Source: a virus
Virus record (IMG/VR): IMGVR_UViG_3300034104_004920
Span: 1 to 64,000 of that record
Direction: 5' to 3' (one strand)
Length of the DNA: 64,000 bases
The translations under genes were made by a program, and so were the position numbers. Position 1 is the stretch's first letter. Each line of letters begins with the position of its first letter. The notes beneath the pieces are model-generated. The model ran no database searches. It worked only from the letters and a program-made list of their open reading frames with translations, and was not told the DNA's origin. Shown here piece by piece: positions 1 to 59,782 of this stretch.

Positions 1-9
1 TGTTTTTCT

Positions 10-100
10 TGACCCTAAACCGTACCGGGCTTGTGTGGGCTGGGGGTGGTTGGTGTGGGTTTGGTGTGGGTTTGGTACGGTTTGACTCAGCTTAGGGTCA
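10..100. repeat. Interrupted inverted repeat enclosing a G/T-rich, G-tract loop
   Basis: TGACCCTAA (10-18) pairs with TTAGGGTCA (92-100), and AAACCGTACC pairs with GGTACGGTTT. The loop contains five GGG+ tracts and a TGGTGTGGGTT direct repeat. Confidence 0.75.
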
Positions 101-117
101 GTTGTGTAAAACTGATC

Positions 118-155
118 TTGACTCAATGAGGTTTTGCACTGTATAATGTGGGCGC
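118..155 (+). promoter_or_regulatory. Sigma70-type promoter, variant of the repeated module
   Basis: TTGACT(118-123)-N18-TATAAT(142-147)-GTG-GGCGC. Confidence 0.65.
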
Positions 156-180
156 AGAACGGGGGGTGTGATTTTTTAGA

Positions 181-302
181 GATTTTGCACTGGCGCAGGT
201 GGCTTTTGGGGAATAAATTTTTCAAGGTTTTCCACTGGCGCAGGTGACCCACGGGGCGAAAAATTTCAAGGTTTTCCACTGGCGCAGGTGGGTCACCTGC
301 GC
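181..302. repeat. Three ~30-bp direct repeats with core ACTGGCGCAGGTG, period 44-45 bp, last copy closed into a hairpin
   Basis: Core at 189-201, 234-246 and 278-290. GCGCAGGTG-ggt-CACCTGCGC hairpin at 282-302. Confidence 0.9.
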
Positions 303-312
303 TAATTAAGTG

Positions 313-408
313 GATGGTTATATTCGTGAACGCTTATATAAGCGGTGGCTTATATTCGTGGTGGCTTATATAAGCCGACACTTATATAAGCAGTGGCTTA
401 TGTGTGGC
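313..408. repeat. Six tandem 16-bp units, three carrying the palindrome CTTATATAAG
   Basis: gatggttatattcgtg / aacgcttatataagcg / gtggcttatattcgtg / gtggcttatataagcc / gacacttatataagca / gtggcttatgtgtggc, in exact 16-bp phase. Confidence 0.9.
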
Positions 409-418
409 CAAACCTTTC

Positions 419-448
419 ATTGTAGCATGGGCCCGGGAAGGGGGTCAA
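419..448 (-). promoter_or_regulatory. Leftward sigma70-type promoter reading into the non-coding repeat block
   Basis: Minus strand TTGACC-N18-TACAAT with extended -10 TG; no credible ORF downstream within the window. Confidence 0.6.
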
Positions 449-602
449 GTGGTTTTTTAACCACACACGGTTTAGTCGGGATTAGAAAAACCTTGACACG
501 GTCGCCAATATTATGTTATAATATTGGCGCCATAATACCCCTATAACCTGGTCAACAATAGGGGTATTAGGTCAAATAATAAGGGGCTATAAGCCCCTTT
601 TA

Positions 603-767
603 TTATTCCCTGATATGTTCTAGTATATCCATTGCCAATTTTTCCATTTCGTCTGTAATATCCACATCAGACATCGGCTGTAGAGCCAGTTTAATAATAA
701 GTGCCAACCGTATCATTTCTTCGTGGCTGAGTGAAATAATATATTCAGTTTTGGTTTCAATTTGCAT
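603..767 (-). CDS. Small hypothetical protein, 54 aa (MQIETKTEYIISLSHEEM...), below the ORF-track cutoff
   Basis: AAGGAG SD, ATG at 767, TAA at 603-605, ends at hairpin 575-607. Confidence 0.7.
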   Translation of the reverse strand: MQIETKTEYIISLSHEEMIRLALIIKLALQPMSDVDITDEMEKLAMDILEHIRE

Positions 768-796
768 TTTTGATTCTCCTTTTGAAAATGCGGATT

Positions 797-1183
797 TTAG
801 TCCAAATCAGTAACGGGTGAATATAATTCTCCGGTACTGAATCCTAGATCATTTAATATCTTTTCCAAGTGTGCTGCAATTAATTGGAATCGGTCATCGT
901 GATGATAGTTTTCATTAAAGCTGTTATCCTCGATCATTTTGGCATGGATTAATTCGTGTGCAATTACCCCATACACATCAAAATTGGATTCTAGTGTCTG
1001 GCCTAAATTAATAACAATTTTGTGTTTTTGGAGACGATTATTGCGAAACACAGTATCGCACCAACCGGCCAAACGACGTTGAGTCTTATTAAAAACTCGG
1101 GTTTTCAATACTACGTCAACTGGTTTCTGTATTTCCAATACAGAAACCACGGCTTGAATAAGCAACAATACGTCAGATTTCAT
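797..1183 (-). CDS. SprT-like zinc metalloprotease
   Basis: HELIH (HExxH) plus downstream H-x-x-x-F (HDDRF). Confidence 0.7.
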   Translation of the reverse strand: MKSDVLLLIQAVVSVLEIQKPVDVVLKTRVFNKTQRRLAGWCDTVFRNNRLQKHKIVINLGQTLESNFDVYGVIAHELIHAKMIEDNSFNENYHHDDRFQLIAAHLEKILNDLGFSTGELYSPVTDLD

Positions 1184-1219
1184 GGTGTGTTATATGGGGG
1201 TTATTAGCCCCCATATATT

Positions 1220-1918
1220 TTACTTGGCTACGAAATGTTCTTTTACTTGGTGTTTATTCCAGTCATATGGAATTACCTTTTCTCGCCAATCACGTTTTTT
1301 CAAGATATTGACCAAAATAGGAACCTCAAAATCTCGGGCATCTTCCAATGCAGTATGTGGCTCAGTCTTAAACTCGCCACTCACAAAACCACAAACACTT
1401 TCAGCTGTGGTTTTGTAGGTCATGTTTTGGTTGACAGTGGGAGAATTGAATAGGTGATTATCCATGCAAAACTGCCGATAGCGCTTAGTATGGGTAATAT
1501 TACCGATACTAGCGTGCCAAAGGCAGAATTTATCATTGAAAATGTTAAGATCAATTCCGGTTTTGTCGCACTTATCACGATCAAAAGCCAGATTGTATGC
1601 GGTAAGGGTTGGATTATATTTACCAACAGCCTGATTCAGCCATTTATTAATGGCAGCTGTACTGGCAAGCATACGAATACCCGAATTAAGCATGGAGACA
1701 TATGCTGCTTTACGCTTTTCCAAACCCTCATACCCCCAAATATCATTTGCACGTTTATCGTGGAACAATTCATATGTGCCATAATGGTCTTTTACCAATA
1801 CTGCACATTGGTTATAAATCTTGCCATCACGGTCAACAATAACCGCGGCAAAATCAGCCACGGTATTTTCCATCGTGGTTTCAGTATCCACCACGCACCA
1901 GAATTGCTTTTTAGCCAT
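1220..1918 (-). CDS. DEDDh (DnaQ-like) 3'-5' exonuclease
   Basis: ExoI VVDTETT, ExoII AYNLAFD, ExoIII HTALEDA. Start moved to MAKKQF (GAAGGT SD). Confidence 0.85.
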   Translation of the reverse strand: MAKKQFWCVVDTETTMENTVADFAAVIVDRDGKIYNQCAVLVKDHYGTYELFHDKRANDIWGYEGLEKRKAAYVSMLNSGIRMLASTAAINKWLNQAVGKYNPTLTAYNLAFDRDKCDKTGIDLNIFNDKFCLWHASIGNITHTKRYRQFCMDNHLFNSPTVNQNMTYKTTAESVCGFVSGEFKTEPHTALEDARDFEVPILVNILKKRDWREKVIPYDWNKHQVKEHFVAK

Positions 1919-1982
1919 ATTAACCTTCACACATGAAACCGGAAAGGGCCGGAGTCTCGCCCATGCTTTGCAGCACCTGCCG

Positions 1983-2011
1983 AGTGTACCGGTTTTTGTG
2001 ATGTATTGCAA
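1983..2011 (-). promoter_or_regulatory. Leftward promoter of exonuclease cassette
   Basis: TTGCAA-N17-TACACT on minus strand. Confidence 0.6.
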
Positions 2012-2110
2012 GCCCCTACAGTGTGGTCAACTATTGACCAGGCGGCTTGACGGGGGCCAATTATATAATATATAATTGGCGCCAATATAAGGGTTTACCC
2101 TTATATTGAT

Positions 2111-2359
2111 TTATTTCCTTTCCCAGATTTTATATCTTATCATTATGACGACGAAAAACAGATTTAGTATGTAGTTGAATAACAGTGGCATATCTCCTTT
2201 TGGAAATATATAAACAATGGTGAATAACTCCCCAAAGAACCAACAACCCAAGAAAAAGGGGTTTAATCCTCGGGCGTGGCCGTCTTTTGCACATTGCAAA
2301 ACCTGGGGAATTGCACATATTGCAAATAATATGCTACCAATCCAACCTATAGTTTCCAT
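2111..2359 (-). CDS. PQ-loop / SemiSWEET-family 3-TM transporter
   Basis: METIGWIGSILFAICAIPQV..., PQ motif after TM1, three hydrophobic helices, conserved N in TM3 (LLFNY). Confidence 0.8.
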   Translation of the reverse strand: METIGWIGSILFAICAIPQVLQCAKDGHARGLNPFFLGCWFFGELFTIVYIFPKGDMPLLFNYILNLFFVVIMIRYKIWERK

Positions 2360-2360
2360 T

Positions 2361-2825
2361 TTAGTGACCCTGAACCGAGGGAATATAAACACCGCGGATA
2401 TTGAAATGATCGCAAACTGCTTTTAGGTAACTCACATTGTCTTCGTAAAATACACAATCCGCAGTTTTGAATTGCTTCAAGTTGAAAAACTTTTGCAAAC
2501 CCTTGATTTTAAGAGTTTTGCCAGACTGATTATCACCGTCACGACGCGAGATAAGATAATCGGGACTGCCGAGAATCTCACGGATAAACACATTATCCAA
2601 TTCGCGCACAATACGCGCAGTGGCGATAATTACATAAGTATTTGGGTCTTGCAAATCACGACGATATTGAGACACAAGAGGAAGCAAACCATCTTGCATA
2701 CACCGATTTTCATTATCGCGCCAGTATTGCAAATCGATTTTGACAATACCATTTTCTGTTACCGTGCGGTAACGGTGGCTGCTATCAACGATCGTGCCGT
2801 CCATGTCATAAATTGCAACCTTCAT
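2361..2825 (-). CDS. HAD-superfamily phosphatase (PNK-phosphatase/5'-nucleotidase-like)
   Basis: Motif I YDMDGT, motif II ATAR, conserved K, motif IV FYEDN. Confidence 0.85.
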   Translation of the reverse strand: MKVAIYDMDGTIVDSSHRYRTVTENGIVKIDLQYWRDNENRCMQDGLLPLVSQYRRDLQDPNTYVIIATARIVRELDNVFIREILGSPDYLISRRDGDNQSGKTLKIKGLQKFFNLKQFKTADCVFYEDNVSYLKAVCDHFNIRGVYIPSVQGH

Positions 2826-3026
2826 TTTGAACCCCTTGTTTTGTAGAGCCCGAGTGTAGCACGTTCGCCCAGGCGACACAAGCCCCCAACAATGACCCTA
2901 CGTCGTGGTCAACCATTGATGTGGTGGCTTGACACGGCCCAATTTTATATTATAAAATTGGCGCCCCTATTAGGGTTTACCCTAATAGGGGTTTTTAAAT
3001 AATAAGGGGTATAACCCCTTATTATG

Positions 3027-3359
3027 TTAGGCAATGGCTTTTGCAATATCTCGAGCCTTTGCCCCTAGCCGGTTCACAATATTTTCTGACCAGTGGCCGC
3101 CAATATTGCAGGGCAATACCTGCATACTCGCCCAACGGTCCAACACAAGATACTCGGCAACATCGTAGCGATACAGGGATTCTTCCACGCTGGCAAGACT
3201 CAGCGCAAATTTGCCAGTATCAATGCCGGTTTGCTTGATACCAACACAAACCCCCAGCAGGGGAAAATGAAAGATAACCACGTCGGGATAATCCGCCCGC
3301 ATATCTTGCAGAATATCCAATTCCGTATCATTCAAGACGGTTTGATTCACATTACGCAT
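3027..3359 (-). CDS. Hypothetical protein
   Basis: 110-aa ORF, AAAGG SD, ends at hairpin 2999-3025. Confidence 0.7.
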   Translation of the reverse strand: MRNVNQTVLNDTELDILQDMRADYPDVVIFHFPLLGVCVGIKQTGIDTGKFALSLASVEESLYRYDVAEYLVLDRWASMQVLPCNIGGHWSENIVNRLGAKARDIAKAIA

Positions 3360-3447
3360 GATAAGCCCTTTCTATGGCTTGGTTGGGAAAATGGTTTGCT
3401 TAGAGTATGTTATACCCTAAGCAAACCCCTTTCGGGGTTTGCGTCAA

Positions 3448-3780
3448 TCATTCGATTGGACGGGAATTGGCCAGTGCATCGAAGATCGCTTTCAATGCAC
3501 GCTTGTTAGCCTTGGTGAGACTGTCCACGTCAGGCTCCGACAGCATGAGGATTTTGCCGATAGCCTCGGCGTGTGCATCCTTCTTCACGGGAGACTCACC
3601 AGTCTTGGTAACATAGGTCTTCTTCTGGTAAACACCCTCACGACTCAGTTTCGCAACAATCGAGCGAACCGATTTACCGAGACTCTCGGCAAGGGCTTCG
3701 ACCGTAGTGCCGGCCTTGTACGCTTCGACCAGAGCAGCAGTCTGCTCAGGAGTATAATTCACAACCTTTTCACTAGCCAT
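3448..3780 (-). CDS. A2-like pre-early DNA-binding (HTH) protein, paralog 1
   Basis: NYTPEQT...LAESLGKSVRSIVAKLSREGVYQKK...KKDAHAEAIG...SLTKANKRAL resembles T5 A2 by eye; GGAG SD. Confidence 0.65.
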   Translation of the reverse strand: MASEKVVNYTPEQTAALVEAYKAGTTVEALAESLGKSVRSIVAKLSREGVYQKKTYVTKTGESPVKKDAHAEAIGKILMLSEPDVDSLTKANKRALKAIFDALANSRPIE

Positions 3781-3852
3781 TTTCAGTTTCTCCGAGTTAA
3801 CACGCATGGGGAAATTTTGGCAATGCCGGGCAATCCCCTCAACCTATGCTGA

Positions 3853-3955
3853 TATTATACAGGGTCAGTATTCCCCCGTCAAGTATTGTGTTTTCTTTCC
3901 TTTCTGTTCGTCGTCGTCAGGGACACAGTATAACGGTTTTTCAGCCTGGACACAA
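3853..3955 (-). promoter_or_regulatory. Tandem leftward promoters upstream of A2-like gene
   Basis: TTGTGT-N17-TATACT (~3927-3955), whose leader has AAAGGA but no start codon, then TTGACG-N17-TATAAT (~3854-3882). Confidence 0.6.
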
Positions 3956-4078
3956 TACCCTAGTGCAATGTGGGGTCTTTGCGCCAGGCGGTGATTGGCA
4001 GTTAACCAGGCGGTAGCCAGCAGTTAACCAGGGGTAAGTCCCTATTGACAGCTGAGTTAGATTGTGATATAATTTTGG

Positions 4079-4180
4079 CGCACCCCATAGGTGTTACCTA
4101 TGGGGTGCGGCGGCTCAATAGGTAACACCTATTGAGCCGCACACAAAAAAGCCGACAAAAACAGTCGGCTTTTTTGTGTG
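4079..4180 (+). ncRNA. Candidate ~95-nt small RNA: two hairpins plus intrinsic terminator
   Basis: Promoter TTGACA(4045)-N17-TATAAT(4068). Stems at 4079-4109 and 4110-4140, then GCCGAC/GTCGGC stem followed by T6. No ORF. Confidence 0.5.
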
Positions 4181-4263
4181 GCCCTTGACAGGGCCCAAAA
4201 TTATATGTTATAATTTTGGCGCAAATTAGCCGCCTGGCCAGGCGGCTAATTATACTGTGATTA

Positions 4264-4425
4264 TTATTCGTCGGTGTTGACGACAATGGTGGAAACGTGG
4301 GGGTCGGAATTGGGGACGTCGTCCAGCATCTTGACCCTATACGCCACCCAGTTGATGCTGGTGTAGTATTCCTGATGATGCTTGAAGTGTTGTTCGTCCC
4401 ACCATTCGATCATGTAAACCTTCAT
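4264..4425 (-). CDS. Small hypothetical protein, 53 aa (MKVYMIEWWDEQHFKHHQEYY...)
   Basis: Own leftward promoter and AAAGGA SD; double TAA stop; not in ORF track. Confidence 0.75.
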   Translation of the reverse strand: MKVYMIEWWDEQHFKHHQEYYTSINWVAYRVKMLDDVPNSDPHVSTIVVNTDE

Positions 4426-4597
4426 TTGGGTTCCTTTCGTGTTGCAGAGAACACAGTATAACGCTTTTTAAGCCGCACAGCACATACCCGAGCGCATCGT
4501 GGGGTCTTTTAGCCAGGCCCTTGACAGGGCCCAAAATTATATGTTATAATTTTGGCGCCATAATAACCCTATAATATATAGGGTTATTATGTGGTCG

Positions 4598-4759
4598 TTA
4601 GAAAAACCCCATGTTGATTATTTTGTAGTCCAGTTTGGGGCACTTTTTGCCTAAATTCTTTTTCAATTCTACACAATCCCTTTCTAAATCCGATAGGTTT
4701 TGATAGTGACACACCAAAACATTATCGAAAAACAAACCCCAGACTTTTACAACACCCAT
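4598..4759 (-). CDS. Small hypothetical protein, 53 aa (MGVVKVWGLFFDNVLVCHY...)
   Basis: Overlaps stop of upstream gene and ends at module hairpin. Confidence 0.55.
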   Translation of the reverse strand: MGVVKVWGLFFDNVLVCHYQNLSDLERDCVELKKNLGKKCPKLDYKIINMGFF

Positions 4760-4959
4760 TTTGAAATCCCCACCAGGTTAGCGCACAAGAAAAACCCGTT
4801 CAATACACTGAGGGATTTATCCCTTTTCGTGATCCCTATATATAGCCACGATATCGAACCAATAATAAACAAACTGTATCCCAAAATATATATCTGAAAC
4901 GCAACCAGAAAACTGCCGATAACCGAGCTTATAGTGCCTAGCCACGATATATACCCCAT
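4747..4959 (-). CDS. Small 3-TM membrane protein (PnuC/YgjV-like half-transporter fold suspected)
   Basis: 70 aa, almost entirely hydrophobic, pattern W-G....G..L....GY..F..G...W. Confidence 0.65.
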   Translation of the reverse strand: MGYISWLGTISSVIGSFLVAFQIYILGYSLFIIGSISWLYIGITKRDKSLSVLNGFFLCANLVGISKWVL

Positions 4960-4960
4960 T

Positions 4961-5326
4961 TCAAATCCGTTTGTAGTTTACCATGTTATGGCATCGTTCT
5001 GGAGGCAGACCTAATTCTTTCATAATCTTTTTCCAGCTTTTGCCATGCCCAAAATCATTATACACCAGAAAAGCCACACAGTGTGCCAATTCATGGGGAA
5101 TAATGACGTTACAAAATTCGTCGGGATATTGTTCGAACAATTCAACCGACAAGTCTATATACTGCGGGTCGTGCTCAATAAAAGCACGTCCTGCGGTAGT
5201 TTTCAGCCGTTTATTCAAAACTACCGCAGGAGCAGTTTTGGTTAAGTTGGGGTACAGATTGCACAGTATGTCCCAAGTGTTTTGGGCACTGCGGTCTGCG
5301 ACTTGTTGCATTGTGGAGTCTTTCAT
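4961..5326 (-). CDS. SprT-family zinc metalloprotease
   Basis: LNKRLKTTAGRA, PHELAH, HGKSWKKIM...LG...RCH are typical SprT motifs. Confidence 0.85.
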   Translation of the reverse strand: MKDSTMQQVADRSAQNTWDILCNLYPNLTKTAPAVVLNKRLKTTAGRAFIEHDPQYIDLSVELFEQYPDEFCNVIIPHELAHCVAFLVYNDFGHGKSWKKIMKELGLPPERCHNMVNYKRI

Positions 5327-5467
5327 GGGCCGGATTCTACTACAAAAATTTGGCTACCACAAGACCCCTCGACCAGGTCAACTATTGCTAGTGTCACTTG
5401 ACACGGTCGCCAATATTATATTATAATATTGGCGCCAGTATTAGGGTTTACCCTAATACTGGCCTTA

Positions 5468-5659
5468 TTAAATAGGTTCGACTTTGTAGACAGTATGTTG
5501 AACAAGCCTTACAGGAATACCATCATATATTTGAAGGTATTGCATATCGATTGGTCTGTCATCAGACCACGATTCCAATTGCTCCACAATTTCTTCGACG
5601 GTTGAACCCGTAGCGATATACTCGGCGATATCGCTGGCAGTATAGATTCCAAACAGCAT
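5468..5659 (-). CDS. Small acidic hypothetical protein
   Basis: AAAGGAAACATCATG SD/start; weakly similar to neighbour 5684-5878. Confidence 0.7.
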   Translation of the reverse strand: MLFGIYTASDIAEYIATGSTVEEIVEQLESWSDDRPIDMQYLQIYDGIPVRLVQHTVYKVEPI

Positions 5660-5683
5660 GATGTTTCCTTTCTTGAAATGTGG

Positions 5684-5878
5684 TTAGTCCGGCAAGACAT
5701 CCCATTTAGCAACCATAGTCATGGAAACCTTGACTTCTTCAGCCCTAAATACCTTTAGGTATATTGGGTCTATTTCTTCCCCTGCTTGACGAGTCAAGTC
5801 TGCGATTATTGGCTCAAGACTGCTGGCACACGCCCACAAGTCTTCACCGTGATCGGTGTAATACACTGCAATAAGCAT
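5684..5878 (-). CDS. Small acidic hypothetical protein
   Basis: Same leader TTCAAGAAAGGAAACATCATGCT as 5468-5659. Confidence 0.7.
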   Translation of the reverse strand: MLIAVYYTDHGEDLWACASSLEPIIADLTRQAGEEIDPIYLKVFRAEEVKVSMTMVAKWDVLPD

Positions 5879-5920
5879 GATGTTTCCTTTCTTGAAAAGG
5901 GGGATACTATCCCCCGGATA

Positions 5921-6241
5921 TCACACGATCAACGAGAGCTTTTGCAGAATCTTTTGCAATGCGGTTTTGTTCGCCTTGGTGAGACTGCTAGTCTCGGGCT
6001 CTGTCAATTCACAAAGAACCCCGATTTTGTCTGCCAGCTCTTCTTTTGAAACAACTGTTTCACCAGTCTTGGTAACATACTCCTTTTTCTTGTAAACACC
6101 TTCCCGGCTCAGTTTGGCCACCACACTGCGAACACTCTTGCCCAGCGTGGCTGCAATACTTTCCACGGGAACACCCTTGCTATACCCGTCCAGCATTTGT
6201 TGGACCTGCTCGGGAGTGTAGTTTGCGGTTTTCTCAGTCAT
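5921..6241 (-). CDS. A2-like pre-early DNA-binding protein, paralog 2
   Basis: Clearly homologous to 3448-3780 (NYTPEQ, LGKSVRSxVAKLSREGVY, YVTKTGE, SLTKANK). Confidence 0.65.
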   Translation of the reverse strand: MTEKTANYTPEQVQQMLDGYSKGVPVESIAATLGKSVRSVVAKLSREGVYKKKEYVTKTGETVVSKEELADKIGVLCELTEPETSSLTKANKTALQKILQKLSLIV

Positions 6242-6256
6242 CTTCTTTCCTTTCAG

Positions 6257-6352
6257 TCAAAGACCATCGCCGACAATAATAGCAATTCCCATTGCAAGAA
6301 TCGCCACCCAGAATGGGCTAGTAGCCCACAAAATCAGAAAAAGATCCGACAT
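6257..6352 (-). CDS. 31-aa single-pass membrane peptide (MSDLFLILWATSPFWVAILAMGIAIIVGDGL)
   Basis: GAGGGG SD; fills the gap between two genes. Confidence 0.55.
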   Translation of the reverse strand: MSDLFLILWATSPFWVAILAMGIAIIVGDGL

Positions 6353-6353
6353 T

Positions 6354-6551
6354 TTAACCCCTCTTTGAATAAACAACCAGACCCGTGAGATACTCGCGCT
6401 TGCCTGCCATGTAGCTGCGACGCACCACATAGGACTTCAAGCCCAGCATGTTAGCAGACCTAATGGCTTCAGTCAACAGGCTAGTGCCCGTGGTGACTGG
6501 TTTGTAGGCAACTTCACTGTGAAAAACAGTGTAAACAGGTTCGTAACCCAT
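6354..6551 (-). CDS. Hypothetical protein (MGYEPVYTVF...)
   Basis: GGAG SD before ATG 6551; leftward promoter ~6589-6618. Confidence 0.65.
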   Translation of the reverse strand: MGYEPVYTVFHSEVAYKPVTTGTSLLTEAIRSANMLGLKSYVVRRSYMAGKREYLTGLVVYSKRG

Positions 6552-6820
6552 CGAAGGTCTCCGGTTGTTCGTCGTTTCCATGGGATAGAGTATAACGGTT
6601 TTTCGGCCCATCCACAATACCCTAGTGCATCGTGTGGTCTTTGAACCAGGCCTAGGGGTAAGTCCCTATTGACAGCAAGAATTTGGTGTGGTATAATTTT
6701 GGCGCCACAAAAACCCTACGATCTGTAGGGTTTTTGCAGCCAGGCCGTTGACACGGCCCAAAATTATGTGTTATAATTTTGGCGCCACAAAGCCCCCACA
6801 TTCTGTGGGGGCTTTGGTTA

Positions 6821-6979
6821 TCACTCCCACATAGTTTTACGGGTCGCGATAGAGGCGATTGTAGCAAGAGGAAATTTCTTCCTGAAGTCTTCGATGGCCA
6901 GATCGCGGGTCTCAGCACGAATAGCCACCGAGTAGCTGCCGAAACCTTCAACTGCGTTAAAGTAGAACCAGGTCTTCAT
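6821..6979 (-). CDS. Small hypothetical protein (MKTWFYFNAVEG...)
   Basis: Conserved cassette leader AAAGGAACACGAGATG. Confidence 0.75.
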   Translation of the reverse strand: MKTWFYFNAVEGFGSYSVAIRAETRDLAIEDFRKKFPLATIASIATRKTMWE

Positions 6980-7156
6980 CTCGTGTTCCTTTCTGCTGCT
7001 GTGAACACAGTATAGCACAACACCGCAACACCTAACTTTTAACCCCTCAGTGTGGTCAACTATCCGGGCACGCGCTTGACACGGCCCAAAATTATGTGTT
7101 ATAATTTTGGCGCCACAAAGCCCCCACATTCTGTGGGGGCTTTGATTGATTGGTGA

Positions 7157-7348
7157 TTACTTTGACTTCAAGTCATTCGTGTGCCATTCCACGCTACGCG
7201 CCACGCTCTCGTTTTCGCGCACAGCACTGGCCAGCATACCCGTCAGGTAACCGACAACAAAGGACTCGGAATAGCCCTTGCTAGCAGCGCGCTCGCGGGC
7301 GGCCTGGAGCAGGGCTTGGACTTGGTTGTAGGCTTCGGTAGCAGTCAT
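7157..7348 (-). CDS. Small hypothetical protein (MTATEAYNQV...)
   Basis: Conserved cassette leader AAAGGAACACGAGATG. Confidence 0.75.
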   Translation of the reverse strand: MTATEAYNQVQALLQAARERAASKGYSESFVVGYLTGMLASAVRENESVARSVEWHTNDLKSK

Positions 7349-7514
7349 CTCGTGTTCCTTTCCTGTTGCAGTGAACGCAGTATAGCACAAGACCGTGCCC
7401 GTGCAAGACCTAAATTTTAACCCCTCAGTGTGGTCAACTATCCAGGCCACCGCTTGACACGGGCCAATTATATAATATATAATTGGCGCCCGAATAGGGG
7501 TTTACCCCTATTCG

Positions 7515-7646
7515 TTATTCTTCATATACTATGAAGTATGGAGTTTCCCCATAATCTCCAGAGTATTCAATGGGATGGTCCGGATTGAACAGAGTCATAT
7601 CAATCCCAGTATCCCAGAAAACATCAAAAACCCAGTCCTGATACAT
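7515..7646 (-). CDS. 43-aa acidic/aromatic peptide (MYQDWVFDVFWDTGID...)
   Basis: AAAGGAAG SD; shares YQDWV with 8619-8753. Confidence 0.65.
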   Translation of the reverse strand: MYQDWVFDVFWDTGIDMTLFNPDHPIEYSGDYGETPYFIVYEE

Positions 7647-7656
7647 ATACTTCCTT

Positions 7657-7881
7657 TCAATAGTCTAGCCAATCGCCCATACTCTCGATTTTGGAGGCTG
7701 CTTCCTCCACACTAACCACATACTGAACCCGATCAACCCAGTTGGGGCTATCCGGGCCAATATACATAACACAACACCAGCGGCCCGTAGCACCACGCGC
7801 AAGACAGTGGATACCCTGTATGGGCCGGGGATACTTCGTACCCGTCATGTCGCATTCGGTGATCATGCCAAAAATCATCAT
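7657..7881 (-). CDS. Hypothetical protein
   Basis: CAGGAG SD; in cassette operon. Confidence 0.65.
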   Translation of the reverse strand: MMIFGMITECDMTGTKYPRPIQGIHCLARGATGRWCCVMYIGPDSPNWVDRVQYVVSVEEAASKIESMGDWLDY

Positions 7882-7901
7882 GGTATATACTCCTGATTTG
7901 A

Positions 7902-8096
7902 TTACGCCATTACTCGGTCGATATAAGCCTGGGCCTGTTCCACAGTCTTAAAAGACTTGACCTGCTTGGTGACCCAGTAGGCGTCCTGCCGGATGGTGTC
8001 AAACTTGAACACCTGCACCTGGACAGTGCGAGTAGCCCACGGTACAACAAACGCCCTGACAGTACCAAGGGCCGGGGGAGTGTAGGTGGTGGTCAT
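7902..8096 (-). CDS. Hypothetical protein (MTTTYTPP...)
   Basis: Cassette leader GAGGAACACGAGATG. Confidence 0.75.
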   Translation of the reverse strand: MTTTYTPPALGTVRAFVVPWATRTVQVQVFKFDTIRQDAYWVTKQVKSFKTVEQAQAYIDRVMA

Positions 8097-8289
8097 CTCG
8101 TGTTCCTCTTGTGTTGCTGTGAACACAGTATAGCACAACACCACACCAGCACAACATCAAAATTTTAACCCCTCGACCAGGTCAACTATTGTGCGGGGGG
8201 CTTGACCAGGCCACCAAAATTATGATATAATTTTGGCGCCCGAATAAGGGTTGTCCCTTATTCGGTTTTGTCTTACTGAGAGTAGGATA

Positions 8290-8451
8290 TCAACCTATCG
8301 AGTAAGTGCCTCCGCGTGGCACGCCGATGTCATCTAGTAGGACGTCAATTACCGTTTGGGAAACCACAGCCCTACCATTGACAAACACGGCATCGACCAA
8401 GTAAGAATACCTGCGGCCGTTGAAACGGATGGAAACAAAAACCTTTTTCAT
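8290..8451 (-). CDS. Hypothetical protein (MKKVFVSIRF...)
   Basis: Cassette leader CAGGAGAACATGAAATG. Confidence 0.7.
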   Translation of the reverse strand: MKKVFVSIRFNGRRYSYLVDAVFVNGRAVVSQTVIDVLLDDIGVPRGGTYSIG

Positions 8452-8618
8452 TTCATGTTCTCCTGCTGCTGTGAACACAGTATAACACAAGACCGTGCCT
8501 GGACAACAATAAATTTTTGACCCTACAACCTACTCGGCTATTGTGGCCAAGCGGCTTGACCAGGCCACCAAAATTATGATATAATTTTGGCGCCCCAATA
8601 GGGGTAAACCCCTATTAA

Positions 8619-8753
8619 TTAGTCCGACCAACACCCCAATAATGGGGGATACTCTGTTTCTGGATATTCCCAGTTTACAGGATTATCCATTGCAATCTCC
8701 GTCAAATCCCAGTCATACAAATAGGGCAAAACCCAGTCTTGATAGTCGCTCAT
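8619..8753 (-). CDS. 44-aa acidic/aromatic peptide (MSDYQDWVLPYLYDWD...)
   Basis: Paralog-like to 7515-7646; ends at module hairpin. Confidence 0.6.
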   Translation of the reverse strand: MSDYQDWVLPYLYDWDLTEIAMDNPVNWEYPETEYPPLLGCWSD

Positions 8754-8764
8754 TTGTCGAACCC

Positions 8765-8899
8765 TTATTCTGTTAGTTCTCTGTATACCTGATCATAACT
8801 AACACAGTATTCCCATGCCGCATTTCTGCAAGCATCAAAGAAACTCATGTGATATACAGACATCAATTGCTTTGCGTAACACACGGCAGCTTCAAGCAT
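8765..8899 (-). CDS. 44-aa hypothetical protein (MLEAAVCYAKQLM...)
   Basis: Overlaps stop of upstream gene; fills the operon gap. Confidence 0.55.
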   Translation of the reverse strand: MLEAAVCYAKQLMSVYHMSFFDACRNAAWEYCVSYDQVYRELTE

Positions 8900-9092
8900 T
8901 TTGTTGCTTTCTGGCATAAACACACAGTTTGTAATAATGGTTTACCATATCCATCAACTGCTGGGCATTTTCTCTTTGTTTAGGATCCTTCAATTCATTT
9001 TCAATTTGTTCGATAAACGCTTTGAAGGTAACGAACAGAAAACCATCGCTCATGGTTTCGGAAATGTATTGCAGTTTTTCTGTAGTATTCAT
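8892..9092 (-). CDS. Hypothetical protein
   Basis: 66-aa ORF in operon. Confidence 0.65.
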   Translation of the reverse strand: MNTTEKLQYISETMSDGFLFVTFKAFIEQIENELKDPKQRENAQQLMDMVNHYYKLCVYARKQQNA

Positions 9093-9103
9093 TTCTTACC
9101 CTT

Positions 9104-9307
9104 TCAAACCCGGAACGTGGGGCTCACGCCGACCTTGTCAGCCACCATCCACACGTACTCCACGTACACTTCTTCTTCGCGGGCTTCCTGAGCCGCCACG
9201 TCCAGATCCCAGTTGGCCTGGTCGTATTCTTCACGAATGGTGATTTCGGCCATGTCCAGCTCAAAGGACTCGATGTCTTCACGGGTCATGTCAGCGGGGT
9301 AGTACAT
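9104..9307 (-). CDS. Highly acidic small protein
   Basis: D/E-rich 67 aa; AAGGAG SD; promoter TTGACA-N18-TATACT at ~9339-9368. Confidence 0.75.
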   Translation of the reverse strand: MYYPADMTREDIESFELDMAEITIREEYDQANWDLDVAAQEAREEEVYVEYVWMVADKVGVSPTFRV

Positions 9308-9474
9308 CTTGGGGCTCCTTGTCTGTGTCAGTAGAGTTAGTATAACGCAAAACAGCGTGTTGTGTCAAACCCGATCTTTGTGTGGGGTCTTTGGCCAGGC
9401 CCTTGACCTGGCCCAGAATTACATGATATAATTCTGGCGCCATAAAGCCCTTACAGTCTGTAAGGGCTTTGGTA

Positions 9475-9681
9475 TCAATGCCATTCCGGCTTGATCCTGG
9501 GCTTCTTCATACGCCAGAACATACGCCACTTGCATCCCTGGGGCGTAAGGGCTTGGGTATTTTCGTAGACCACGAACCTGTTACCTCTCAGCTTTCCAAC
9601 CGGCTTGCCCGGGAGCTGGCCACGCAATAGCCTTTCGGCAGTCTTTTCATAGGTCTTGACAAGCATCGCAGTCTTCCTCAC
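9475..9681 (-). CDS. Basic hypothetical protein
   Basis: GTGA overlap with upstream stop; K/R-rich. Confidence 0.6.
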   Translation of the reverse strand: MRKTAMLVKTYEKTAERLLRGQLPGKPVGKLRGNRFVVYENTQALTPQGCKWRMFWRMKKPRIKPEWH

Positions 9682-9926
9682 TTCTTCTTCAAGAAAGTCT
9701 TTTCGTAATTGTCGATCATTGCAGTCTGTCGCTGATTCTGGTCCCTCAGCTTCTTAAGCTCAATTTGACTGAAGCCATACCGGGCTTCCATGTAGTTGAT
9801 GTAGTCGAGGGATTCTTCCAGCAGCTTCCAGAGCTTATCAGCATCGTGAGCCGCAAGCAGGGCTTTTCGAATCGTCTTGAGCCTAAAATCCTGGTCGCTG
9901 GACAGTTGGGGTTGATCGTTAGGCAT
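9678..9926 (-). CDS. Hypothetical coiled-coil protein (MPNDQPQL...)
   Basis: GGGAG SD, cassette leader and promoter upstream. Confidence 0.7.
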   Translation of the reverse strand: MPNDQPQLSSDQDFRLKTIRKALLAAHDADKLWKLLEESLDYINYMEARYGFSQIELKKLRDQNQRQTAMIDNYEKTFLKKK

Positions 9927-10094
9927 CTTTGCTCCCTTGTGTGTTGCAGTGAAGACAGTATAACCCAAAACACCACAGTCAGTCAAACCCGAGTGTTTTG
10001 TGGTGGAATTGTGTAGGGCCTTGACGGGGGCCAGAATATTGTGATATAATTCTGGCGCCATAAAGCCCTTACAGTCTGTAAGGGCTTTGGTCAA

Positions 10095-10337
10095 TCACAC
10101 CAACCGATACCGACCCGCATCATACTCGCGAAGCACAGCCCGACCTATGTTGGCGTTAGTGTCCATATCGAGCCCCCACAACACAACCACGCCGGAAATG
10201 TGGCGTGAGGCATCGTGAAAGAAAACCTCTACATCGTCCAGGTTTAGCTCTACCGCATCCTGTTCTTCAAACACAATGTCCAAGAATTGTTGATTGTTGT
10301 AGACCCGGCCGGTGTTGTAAACAATGTGCCTTCTCAT
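10095..10337 (-). CDS. Hypothetical protein (MRRHIVYNTGR...)
   Basis: AAAGGAACACTAAGATG leader. Confidence 0.7.
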   Translation of the reverse strand: MRRHIVYNTGRVYNNQQFLDIVFEEQDAVELNLDDVEVFFHDASRHISGVVVLWGLDMDTNANIGRAVLREYDAGRYRLV

Positions 10338-10359
10338 CTTAGTGTTCCTTTGTGGGTTA

Positions 10360-10515
10360 TTAGAAGCTGCCGGAAAGTATGGGGATGTTACGGGCCGGAC
10401 CGATAAGGACAACATCCTCCAGAGGAGCGGTGTCGTCCAGGTACGGATGCTGAATGCGAACTTCCTCAGACGGGTCAAGGGTTTGCAGAATCTGGATCAG
10501 GTCTTGTACGGTCAT
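10360..10515 (-). CDS. Hypothetical protein (MTVQDLIQIL...)
   Basis: Common small phage protein N-terminus MTVxELIxxL; cassette leader and promoter. Confidence 0.7.
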   Translation of the reverse strand: MTVQDLIQILQTLDPSEEVRIQHPYLDDTAPLEDVVLIGPARNIPILSGSF

Positions 10516-10610
10516 TTTGGTGTTCCTCTCGTGTTGCAGTGATGACAGTATAACGCAAAACACCACAGTCAGTCAAACCCGATCTTTGTGTGGGGTCTTT
10601 GTGTGGCCCC

Positions 10611-10640
10611 TTGACGTGGCCTAAAAACACATGGTACAAT
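10611..10640 (+). promoter_or_regulatory. Rightward promoter, last module variant
   Basis: TTGACG-N18-TACAAT with TG extension. Confidence 0.55.
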
Positions 10641-10782
10641 AGGGGCGGTTAACAGACTAGTTACTTTACTGAGTGTGCTGCGCCCCCCAACACGGCCTCT
10701 TTTAAAAAATATCACACAAAGTTTTCGGTGCCAAAACCCAACAAATCTTCTTTTAAAATAATACCCAAGTCAAAAATAGTGG

Positions 10783-59146: not shown

Positions 59147-59782
59147 TTATAGATCTTTGACTGATTCTTTGTCTACTGTTGCAGGAACTTCTTCGTCCGC
59201 ACCACTAGCAAACTTTTCTAGAAGTGCTAGTACGTCGTCGGGTGTTGGACGTGGATACTTTGCGTCAATGTTTTCCGCTGCGTCCGCAAGAGCTTGTTCG
59301 TCCTTTGACAGAGCCCTGCGCTTGCACTTCAAAACTGCAAGAGTGTATTCTACATTGAAAGGTAGAGGGCCAGTCTTGGCTCGCTTGAATACTACGTCCC
59401 AACCAGTATCGTAATCAGTAGGATCGCCCAGGTCTTCTGCAGCAGTTAGAATCTGCTCGAACAGCTTCTTTTTAAGATTCAATACCTTGACCTTGCCGTC
59501 CTTTGGATCAATACAGTTGATGCTGTAAGACCAAGAGCACTTGGCTTCTGGATAAAACGTTGGTACGTGATCTGTTTCTTTGTTTGTGAACTTTTCCTTG
59601 TCACGATCAAAAGCCAAGCACTCTACGGGAATATCCTTGTTGTTGCTTCCCTTTAGCCAGTAAACATACCGTGGCAGTACTCCGCCAATTAGTCGTACTA
59701 CGTTCTCGCCGTCTTTGTACTCGTATGCTTCTACTGACTTCTTTACTGCCTTGCCTTTTGTTTCGTTAAACTTTAGTGCCAT
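59147..59782 (-). CDS. ssDNA-binding protein (T5 D11-like)
   Basis: PRYVYW, ECL.F.R.KE.F, LKKKLF, GPLPFNVEY; synteny. Confidence 0.85.
   Translation of the reverse strand: MALKFNETKGKAVKKSVEAYEYKDGENVVRLIGGVLPRYVYWLKGSNNKDIPVECLAFDRDKEKFTNKETDHVPTFYPEAKCSWSYSINCIDPKDGKVKVLNLKKKLFEQILTAAEDLGDPTDYDTGWDVVFKRAKTGPLPFNVEYTLAVLKCKRRALSKDEQALADAAENIDAKYPRPTPDDVLALLEKFASGADEEVPATVDKESVKDL

Follow-up and report, generated by a model that had tools for sequence, protein, structure and literature searches.

Promoter-early stem-loops (PeSLs) of T4-like phages are repeated elements in which a strong sigma-70-type promoter is joined to a terminating G/C-rich stem-loop, and the stem-loop often overlaps the -10 element (PMC2839356, PMC4122927). 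They are the closest described elements to the promoter-hairpin cassettes analyzed here. Short constitutive phage transcripts that are ended by an immediate terminator are found in lambda, i.e. the oop RNA and the 6S RNA of pR′-tR′. The oop RNA is antisense to a defined gene, and the Q antiterminator acts on the pR′ transcript. The put element of phage HK022 is a two-stem RNA situated just after the promoter, which makes the polymerase resistant to downstream terminators.

The DNA analyzed (the window) consists of the first 64 kb of a 97,277-bp IMG/VR virus record, IMGVR_UViG_3300034104_004920. The contig ends overlap, with record positions 97081–97277 being 99% identical to positions 1–197 over 197 bases. 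The contig is thus a collapsed or circular assembly, which does not define the physical ends or the terminal repeat of the genome. By gene content the virus is placed as a distant, uncultured T5-like siphovirus. The large terminase, a protease-capsid fusion and a T5-type tail tube protein show approximately 33% identity to those of cultured Demerecviridae, and the gene content further includes a ribonucleotide reductase, an SbcC-like nuclease, a helicase and a DNA polymerase. All homology-supported genes from position 1 to approximately 10.6 kb are on the minus strand and include polynucleotide kinase/HAD-like, SprT-like and two A2-like DNA-binding proteins; the plus-strand structural genes start from 10.8 kb. 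The minus-strand layout of 1–10.6 kb is that found in the left terminal repeat of T5, i.e. its pre-early region. At the border of the pre-early and structural genes (10608–10760) there is a last rightward promoter, TTGACG-N17-TACAAT, which is followed by a non-coding stretch, GGGGCGGTTAACAGAC ... CCCCCCAACACGGCC ... TTTTCGGTGCCAAA, whose motifs recur 3′ of promoters in two relatives (L146 and L151). This stretch could represent a conserved leader or else a structured RNA.

The A2-like gene closest to the locus of interest is transcribed divergently from it (Table 1). Its protein displays a weak similarity to T5 A2 and has 210 relatives in IMG/VR, and a paralog at 5921–6241 shows 57% identity to it. 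Searches of the cultured-phage collection by megablast, by blastn and by tblastn with the A2-like protein gave zero matches, thus an annotated or studied relative is lacking. Upstream of the true A2-like promoter, at 3885–3960 on the minus strand, there is a second leftward element that is promoter-like, TTGTGT-N17-TATACT. It has the standard leader and AAAGGA but lacks a start codon, and the block is duplicated at 6566–6651.

Table 1. Coordinates of the features at and around the unit at position 4045 (window positions).
Feature	Position	Strand	Remarks
A2-like small DNA-binding protein gene (119 aa)	3448–3807	-	PHROG 1725 "DNA binding protein"; PHROG 323 "D5-like regulator"
Leftward sigma-70 promoter of the A2-like gene, TTGACG-N17-TATAAT	3854–3882	-	11/12 match
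Two direct repeats, CCAGGCGGT...CAGTTAACC, between the divergent promoters	3982–4029		not in the paralogous unit at 6669
TAGG-box palindrome, variant AGGGGTAAGTCCCTA, abutting the -35	4030–4044		position holds TAGGKG-N4-CMCCTA in 86 distinct modules of relatives
Sigma-70 promoter P4045: -35 at 4045–4050, TG at 4065–4066, -10 at 4068–4073	4045–4073	+	12/12 match plus TG
Conserved TTTGGCGC motif	4074–4081	+	follows the -10; family motif
Hairpin 1: arms 4079–4092/4096–4109, perfect 14 bp, loop GTT, apex ATAGGT/ACCTAT	4079–4109		-26.2 kcal/mol
Hairpin 2: arms 4110–4123/4127–4140, perfect 14 bp, loop AAC, apex palindrome of hairpin 1	4110–4140		-24.1 kcal/mol
Predicted bidirectional intrinsic terminator: A6, GCCGAC, 7-nt loop, GTCGGC, T6	4140–4180		-26.5 kcal/mol
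Next cassette: palindromic 18-nt-spacer promoter, GGCGC, hairpin 4224–4251	4185–4251	+	at the 3′ end of ORF 4264–4425 (-)

The unit at 4045 had originally been predicted from the sequence as a promoter of the form TTGACA-N17-TATAAT that is followed by two hairpins and a terminator stem with T6. The promoter is confirmed as a full match with an extended -10; its 17-nt spacer is non-palindromic and ends in TGa. Transcription is predicted to start near G4080, a position derived from the usual 7-nt distance, which is already within the stem of hairpin 1. Both hairpins and the terminator stem with its T-tract are likewise present. The arms of the terminator palindrome (4140–4156/4164–4180) form 17 bp, and all three palindromes are 100% complementary. 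Judged by sequence, positions 4140–4180 have the make-up of a bidirectional intrinsic terminator, i.e. a 5′ A-tract, a GC-rich stem and a 3′ T-tract. The 108-nt stretch folds at -77.8 kcal/mol compared with -30.8 ± 3.5 kcal/mol for shuffled sequences (z = -13.3), and the minus strand of the stretch gives z = -14.0. Since both strands fold equally well, the structure is far beyond chance but is not strand-specific.

The statement that no gene ends here stands only in part, as a minus-strand 53-codon open reading frame (4264–4425) ends 84 nt to the right of the unit. Its own hairpin (4224–4251) has a poor U-tract, and the A6/T6 element at 4140–4180 is the first good predicted terminator after this open reading frame on the leftward path. 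From its symmetry of sequence this element should work in both directions and can end the mRNA of the open reading frame as well. A coding role of the unit was considered and rejected. The sole open reading frame that spans it is a TTG-started 62-codon minus-strand frame running through promoters and palindromes, and the plus strand holds nothing but a 7-codon frame within a stem.

The unit belongs to a family of cassettes. The motif TATAATTTTGGCGC, with up to two mismatches, has 19 matches in the window where 0.77 are expected. Of the plus-strand matches, 14 are within 1–10.1 kb and a single weak match with two mismatches is at 35.8 kb; beyond the window, the 97-kb record adds a single plus-strand match, which is the first match repeated in the overlapping contig end. 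Each pre-early match is a full promoter that has a hairpin directly after it and faces against the genes. The 4045 unit displays the same organization, i.e. TTGAC-N17/18-(TGn)TATAAT, then (T)TTGGCGC, then a hairpin within 0–10 nt, all directed against the pre-early genes. The left terminal repeat of T5 has zero plus-strand TTGAC-N-TATAAT-GGCGC modules.

Modules of relatives in IMG/VR were collected by an exact-motif scan and from loci around homologues of the A2-like gene. This gave 429 distinct modules, with 376 having an 18-nt spacer and 309 a TG before the -10. In the main class (type-1) the spacer, the -10 and GGCGCC form one long palindrome. The GGCGC motif is always 5′ of the hairpin, even in a clade where the motif lies 10–13 nt further from the -10. 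The hairpins vary between phages and are nearly always perfect. Mismatches over 273 distinct family hairpins comprise 16 G-T and 23 A-C; G-T is thus not commoner than A-C, which argues against a constraint on the plus-strand RNA alone. The tally fits either hairpins that are needed in both transcripts or palindromes at the DNA level, and does not separate the two.

A second class of modules (type-2) has a 17-nt spacer without conserved sequence. In the 50 distinct modules of this class the -35, TG and -10 are kept and TAGGKG-N4-CMCCTA abuts the -35. When modules with 18-nt spacers are included the box is borne by 86 distinct modules, in a fixed register to the -35. The arm pairs at position 5 of the box are G-C (26), T-C (12), G-A (12) and T-A (10), which is near the expectation for no pairing, although the sequences are related. 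As the arms vary independently, the box appears to be a DNA sequence site and not a hairpin, unlike the compensating hairpins downstream. The half-site ATAGG[GT] occurs at 2.64 per kb in positions 1–10600 and at 0.51 per kb in the rest of the window, i.e. it is five times denser in the pre-early region. Canonical 16-bp TAGG boxes also serve as the hairpins that follow GGCGC at 7495 and 8599 (7495–7510 and 8599–8614), and the TAGG box of the unit at 6669 is at 6653–6668. Inside module hairpins the half-sites are found both head-to-head and tail-to-tail.

The typical type-2 module is divergent from an A2-like gene and has one terminator-like hairpin, with a main-class promoter approximately 78 nt on and no intervening gene. 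The 4045 unit is of this type with a variant box, however the next promoter follows only after 140 nt, compared with the usual approximately 78 nt. The doublet of a type-2 promoter, one hairpin and a type-1 promoter recurs across several lineages. The window has two doublets, at 4045 and 6669, each upstream of one A2-like paralog. The two units align on both flanks, but there are three hairpins at 4045 and one at 6669 (6708–6736), and it is the terminator at 4140–4180 that aligns with this single hairpin. Hairpins 1 and 2 account for approximately 62 extra bases in the 4045 copy, which also has a direct repeat of 34 nt on its upstream side.

In a scan of the collection hairpins 1 and 2 were found in the window and in two further contigs only, L131 and L132. 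These are the nearest relatives, are approximately 98% identical over the region and keep the whole unit. The scan with CATAGGTNNNACCTATG was unspecific, with matches in at least 119 unrelated contigs, and the unit is carried only by L131 and L132. Six of the 17 spacer bases of P4045 differ from those of L131/L132, and the -35, TG and -10 are all kept. The reading of the locus as a gene-less promoter-to-terminator unit with a predicted plus-strand RNA of approximately 97 nt is upheld, as the promoter elements are kept in the relatives and in the subclass and there is no credible open reading frame.

The six differences from L131 in the spacer (4051–4067) are found in genomes that are otherwise approximately 98% identical, and positions 4007–4012 in the direct-repeat block likewise show clustered differences. 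These two clusters are local hot spots or recombination patches. The direct repeats themselves are closer to identical with each other in L131.

A clade whose A2-like protein is 78% identical has, independently, two copies of another palindrome and a terminator at the same position. In three contigs of this clade (L135, L137 and L140) the arrangement is beside the A2-like gene at approximately 3474–3570 in the orientation of the window, and consists of two copies of the 20-bp perfect palindrome TGTGATGTTATAACATCACA with a terminator. A further module joins half-sites of TGTGATGTTATAACATCACA with GTTTCATGTGAAAC. The two-palindrome arrangement in this clade suggests that a pair of sites may be selected for.

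The apical 15-mers of hairpins 1 and 2 (4087–4101 and 4118–4132) had been described as exact reverse complements, and this is correct. However both apexes are the palindrome ATAGGT-NNN-ACCTAT, thus the relation is carried by the 3-nt loops, GTT and AAC, alone. The consequences that had been drawn from it are not borne out. Refolding into the 15-bp helix gives -55.7 kcal/mol compared with -71.0 kcal/mol for the three hairpins, which is 15.3 kcal/mol worse and corresponds to a probability of about 1e-10. Kissing of the loops fares no better, since these are 3 nt long and a GUU/AAC duplex is unfavorable at +1.5 kcal/mol; even a 5-nt loop duplex would give only -1.4 kcal/mol and the closing pairs must open for it. 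In L131 and L132 the loop of hairpin 1 is AAC, so that the apexes are direct repeats, the loops are identical and the complementarity is absent. Two folds of similar energy or conserved complementary loops of at least 5 nt, which would mark a bistable or kissing-loop riboregulator, were not found in the unit. The unpaired stretches are the loops of 3, 3 and 7 nt only, and the unit does not have the form of an Hfq-type base-pairing sRNA.

The loops of these hairpins flip. Among apical-arm groups with more than one loop variant, 15 of 34 contain exact reverse-complement loop pairs of up to 7 nt. Three of the seven module hairpins that can be compared between the window and L131 are flipped, i.e. 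GTT/AAC, ATA/TAT, and GATCT versus AGATT, the last being a flip plus one change. The center of the junction between the palindromes in the L135/L137/L140 clade also flips, GG versus CC. Inversion of a perfect palindrome is visible in the loop only, thus the hairpins occur in either orientation. Loop direction seems to be neutral, and the reverse complementarity of the two apexes is best seen as a by-product, one snapshot of loop flipping. A description of the apexes as a DNA site pair in inverted orientation had also been offered. This is right as a description, but the orientation is not conserved and flips freely in the cassette family. If orientation is neutral, any proposed function must be symmetric.

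The explanation preferred here, to which about an even chance is given, takes the 4045 unit as an enlarged version, devoid of a gene, of the backward promoter-hairpin cassette, and this version would act as a symmetric transcription barrier before the A2-like control region. Host RNA polymerase would start near 4080 and stop near 4175–4178, giving an RNA of approximately 97 nt. The longest single-stranded region of this predicted RNA is 7 nt. It is double-stranded almost from end to end, including the 5′ end, and therefore should be very stable and offer no free seed. All three stems are perfect palindromes, thus the same stack should form in leftward transcripts. The stack of hairpins would shield the A2-like control region from read-through of the cassettes on the right, and a switch is a less probable role for the RNA than that of a by-product or stable hairpin species. 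Two observations are left over by the barrier reading. One terminator would be enough for insulation, which leaves the two extra hairpins, and the barrier does not account for family promoters that face against the genes.

A DNA operator cluster is possible, though on the unlikely side. The TAGG box and the apical palindromes would bind a dimeric phage protein, the A2-like protein being the candidate, and this would control both P4045 and the divergent promoter of the A2-like gene. The apical palindromes are centered near +14 and +45, i.e. 31 bp apart, and the unit adjoins the gene of a conserved DNA-binding protein. The fixed register of the box abutting the -35 in so many modules suits an operator, as does a sequence that is conserved while its arms vary independently, which is the signature of a sequence site. 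The pre-early enrichment of half-sites and the use of canonical boxes as post-GGCGC hairpins point the same way, and independence of orientation suits a symmetric site. The apex ATAGGT/ACCTAT shared by hairpins 1 and 2 resembles the half-site of the family box; this resemblance is unlikely to be due to chance and may hint at sequence-specific recognition. However the half-sites in hairpins 1 and 2 are 1 nt apart compared with 4 nt in the canonical box, and the same dimer geometry would not fit. The apexes were accordingly rejected as canonical TAGG boxes, the half-site spacing being off by 3 bp. In addition, the 14-bp perfect stems reach far past any box and differ between the two hairpins, which suggests selection for, or correction toward, pairing.

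It is doubtful that the unit encodes a trans-acting stable RNA, i.e. an abundant early sponge or decoy of approximately 97 nt, possible targets being a host nuclease or a defense that senses RNA. The consensus promoter, the terminator that is strong by sequence, the 5′ end buried in a stem and the retention of the unit in L131 and L132 are consistent with such an RNA, and the architecture is like that of the three-stem antisense RNA I. Against this, the unit is confined to one narrow lineage, the loop sequence is not conserved and there is no single-stranded seed. The family hairpins also show no plus-strand wobble bias, and in L131 a single C-A mismatch interrupts hairpin 2 close to its stem base, a position that would be a G-U pair only on the minus strand.

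An improbable reading is that the cassettes form a loading pad for RNA polymerase or an aid to DNA entry. The backward promoters would recruit polymerase to the DNA that enters first and release it after a very short transcript, and the released polymerase would slide to the weaker leftward gene promoters. In the DNA-entry variant read-through, when allowed, would draw in the remaining DNA of the genome, similar to T7. All the promoters point in one direction, toward the late genes, and do so in the pre-early region only, and each runs at once into a terminator-like hairpin. E. coli RNA polymerase has been documented to slide after termination and to re-initiate at promoters close by, whichever way these point (PMC6978380, PMC10372574). 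On the other side, this mechanism is inferred throughout, the contig ends overlap by 197 nt and thus do not mark the physical genome ends, and T5 itself has no such modules. The further proposal that the backward promoters load polymerase on the injected end, or pull the genome in, with the A2-like protein at the TAGG boxes and apical palindromes acting as a gate, is slightly more improbable again. A gated loading device of this type, if true, would give a sequence-level handle on what drives two-step DNA transfer in T5-like phages.

Very little probability is given to a DNA processing site, in which G|GCGC beside a hairpin would be nicked by a phage enzyme as at the single-strand interruptions of T5. 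The T5 record gives the nick consensus Pu|GCGC, and the major T5 nick at 9748/9749 reads AAAA|GCGC and then a palindrome. However the three annotated T5 sites share a longer sequence, GA|GCGCAGGG, on the minus strand. At 4077–4081 of the window the core G|GCGC is present and the extended GA|GCGCAGGG form is absent. In the modules the motif is GGCGCC or GGCGCA and goes together with a full plus-strand promoter, and better candidates in this genome are RGCGCAGG at 192–303 and on the minus strand at 59315, 69610 and 76069. There are three plus-strand copies of RGCGCAGG in 44-bp repeats at 192–288, and four minus-strand copies are spread over the genome, including 59315–59322 in the window and 69610 and 76069 of the full record.

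An RNA that switches by refolding into the 15-bp helix or by loop-loop pairing is barely credible, as the 15-nt reverse complementarity is exact but the reading is contradicted by the folding energies, by the missing complementarity in L131/L132, by frequent and apparently neutral loop flips, and by the presence of just one hairpin both in the paralogous unit at 6669 and in this subclass in other lineages.

Taken alone, the 4045 unit is a lineage-specific elaboration. It is also the clearest gene-less case, and as such indicates that the backward promoters are complete promoter-to-terminator units rather than remnants of promoters for genes. The unit further makes clear that the family has palindromes of two types, i.e. 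the -35 box, which is conserved in sequence and does not compensate, and the hairpins, which are free in sequence and perfectly paired. Hundreds of copies of the cassette are present in uncultured T5-like phages, and nothing equivalent to the family has been described.

The flipping of loops has a parallel in chloroplast non-coding DNA, where minute inversions of hairpin loops occur between short inverted repeats (reviewed in PMC12371153). In both cases loops flip to the reverse complement recurrently and independently of phylogeny. The hairpins here are promoter-proximal and in phages, and the frequency is high even at 98% identity. With HK022 put the unit shares the layout of two adjacent hairpins only, and the paralogous unit at 6669 lacks the pair. 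The likeness to oop and 6S is a strong host-type promoter, an intrinsic terminator within approximately 100–200 nt and no coding capacity; unlike these, the 4045 unit has no identified target or antiterminator.

Rfam at gathering thresholds gave no match over the whole 64-kb window. A comparison with Rfam had been put forward as a check of the unit, and a permissive search gave architectural matches below threshold only, i.e. RNA I, the Thr leader and others. The ColE1 RNA I model (RF00106) scores 31.9 bits compared with a gathering score of 47. This model aligns end to end, and RNA I is also an RNA of approximately 100 nt with a constitutive promoter and three consecutive stem-loops, the last at the terminator. 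However the loops of RNA I are 6–7 nt compared with 3 nt here, and there is no replication-primer target. The resemblance is architectural and not homologous.

The PeSLs are the nearest comparison. Like a PeSL, the 4045 unit couples a sigma-70-like early promoter to a terminator stem-loop in a plastic early region between small ORFan genes, and in both cases these are conserved repeats that could be recombination points between cassettes. PeSLs, however, have the same direction as the genes and terminate at a Shine-Dalgarno sequence with a start codon, whereas the cassettes face all genes and run into hairpins only; there is no plus-strand open reading frame downstream of the 4045 unit and the supported genes are all on the minus strand. 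PeSLs are found in T4-like myoviruses and the cassettes in T5-like siphoviruses. To the promoter and stem-loop the cassettes add the invariant TTTGGCGC motif and a subclass in which a TAGG box abuts the -35.
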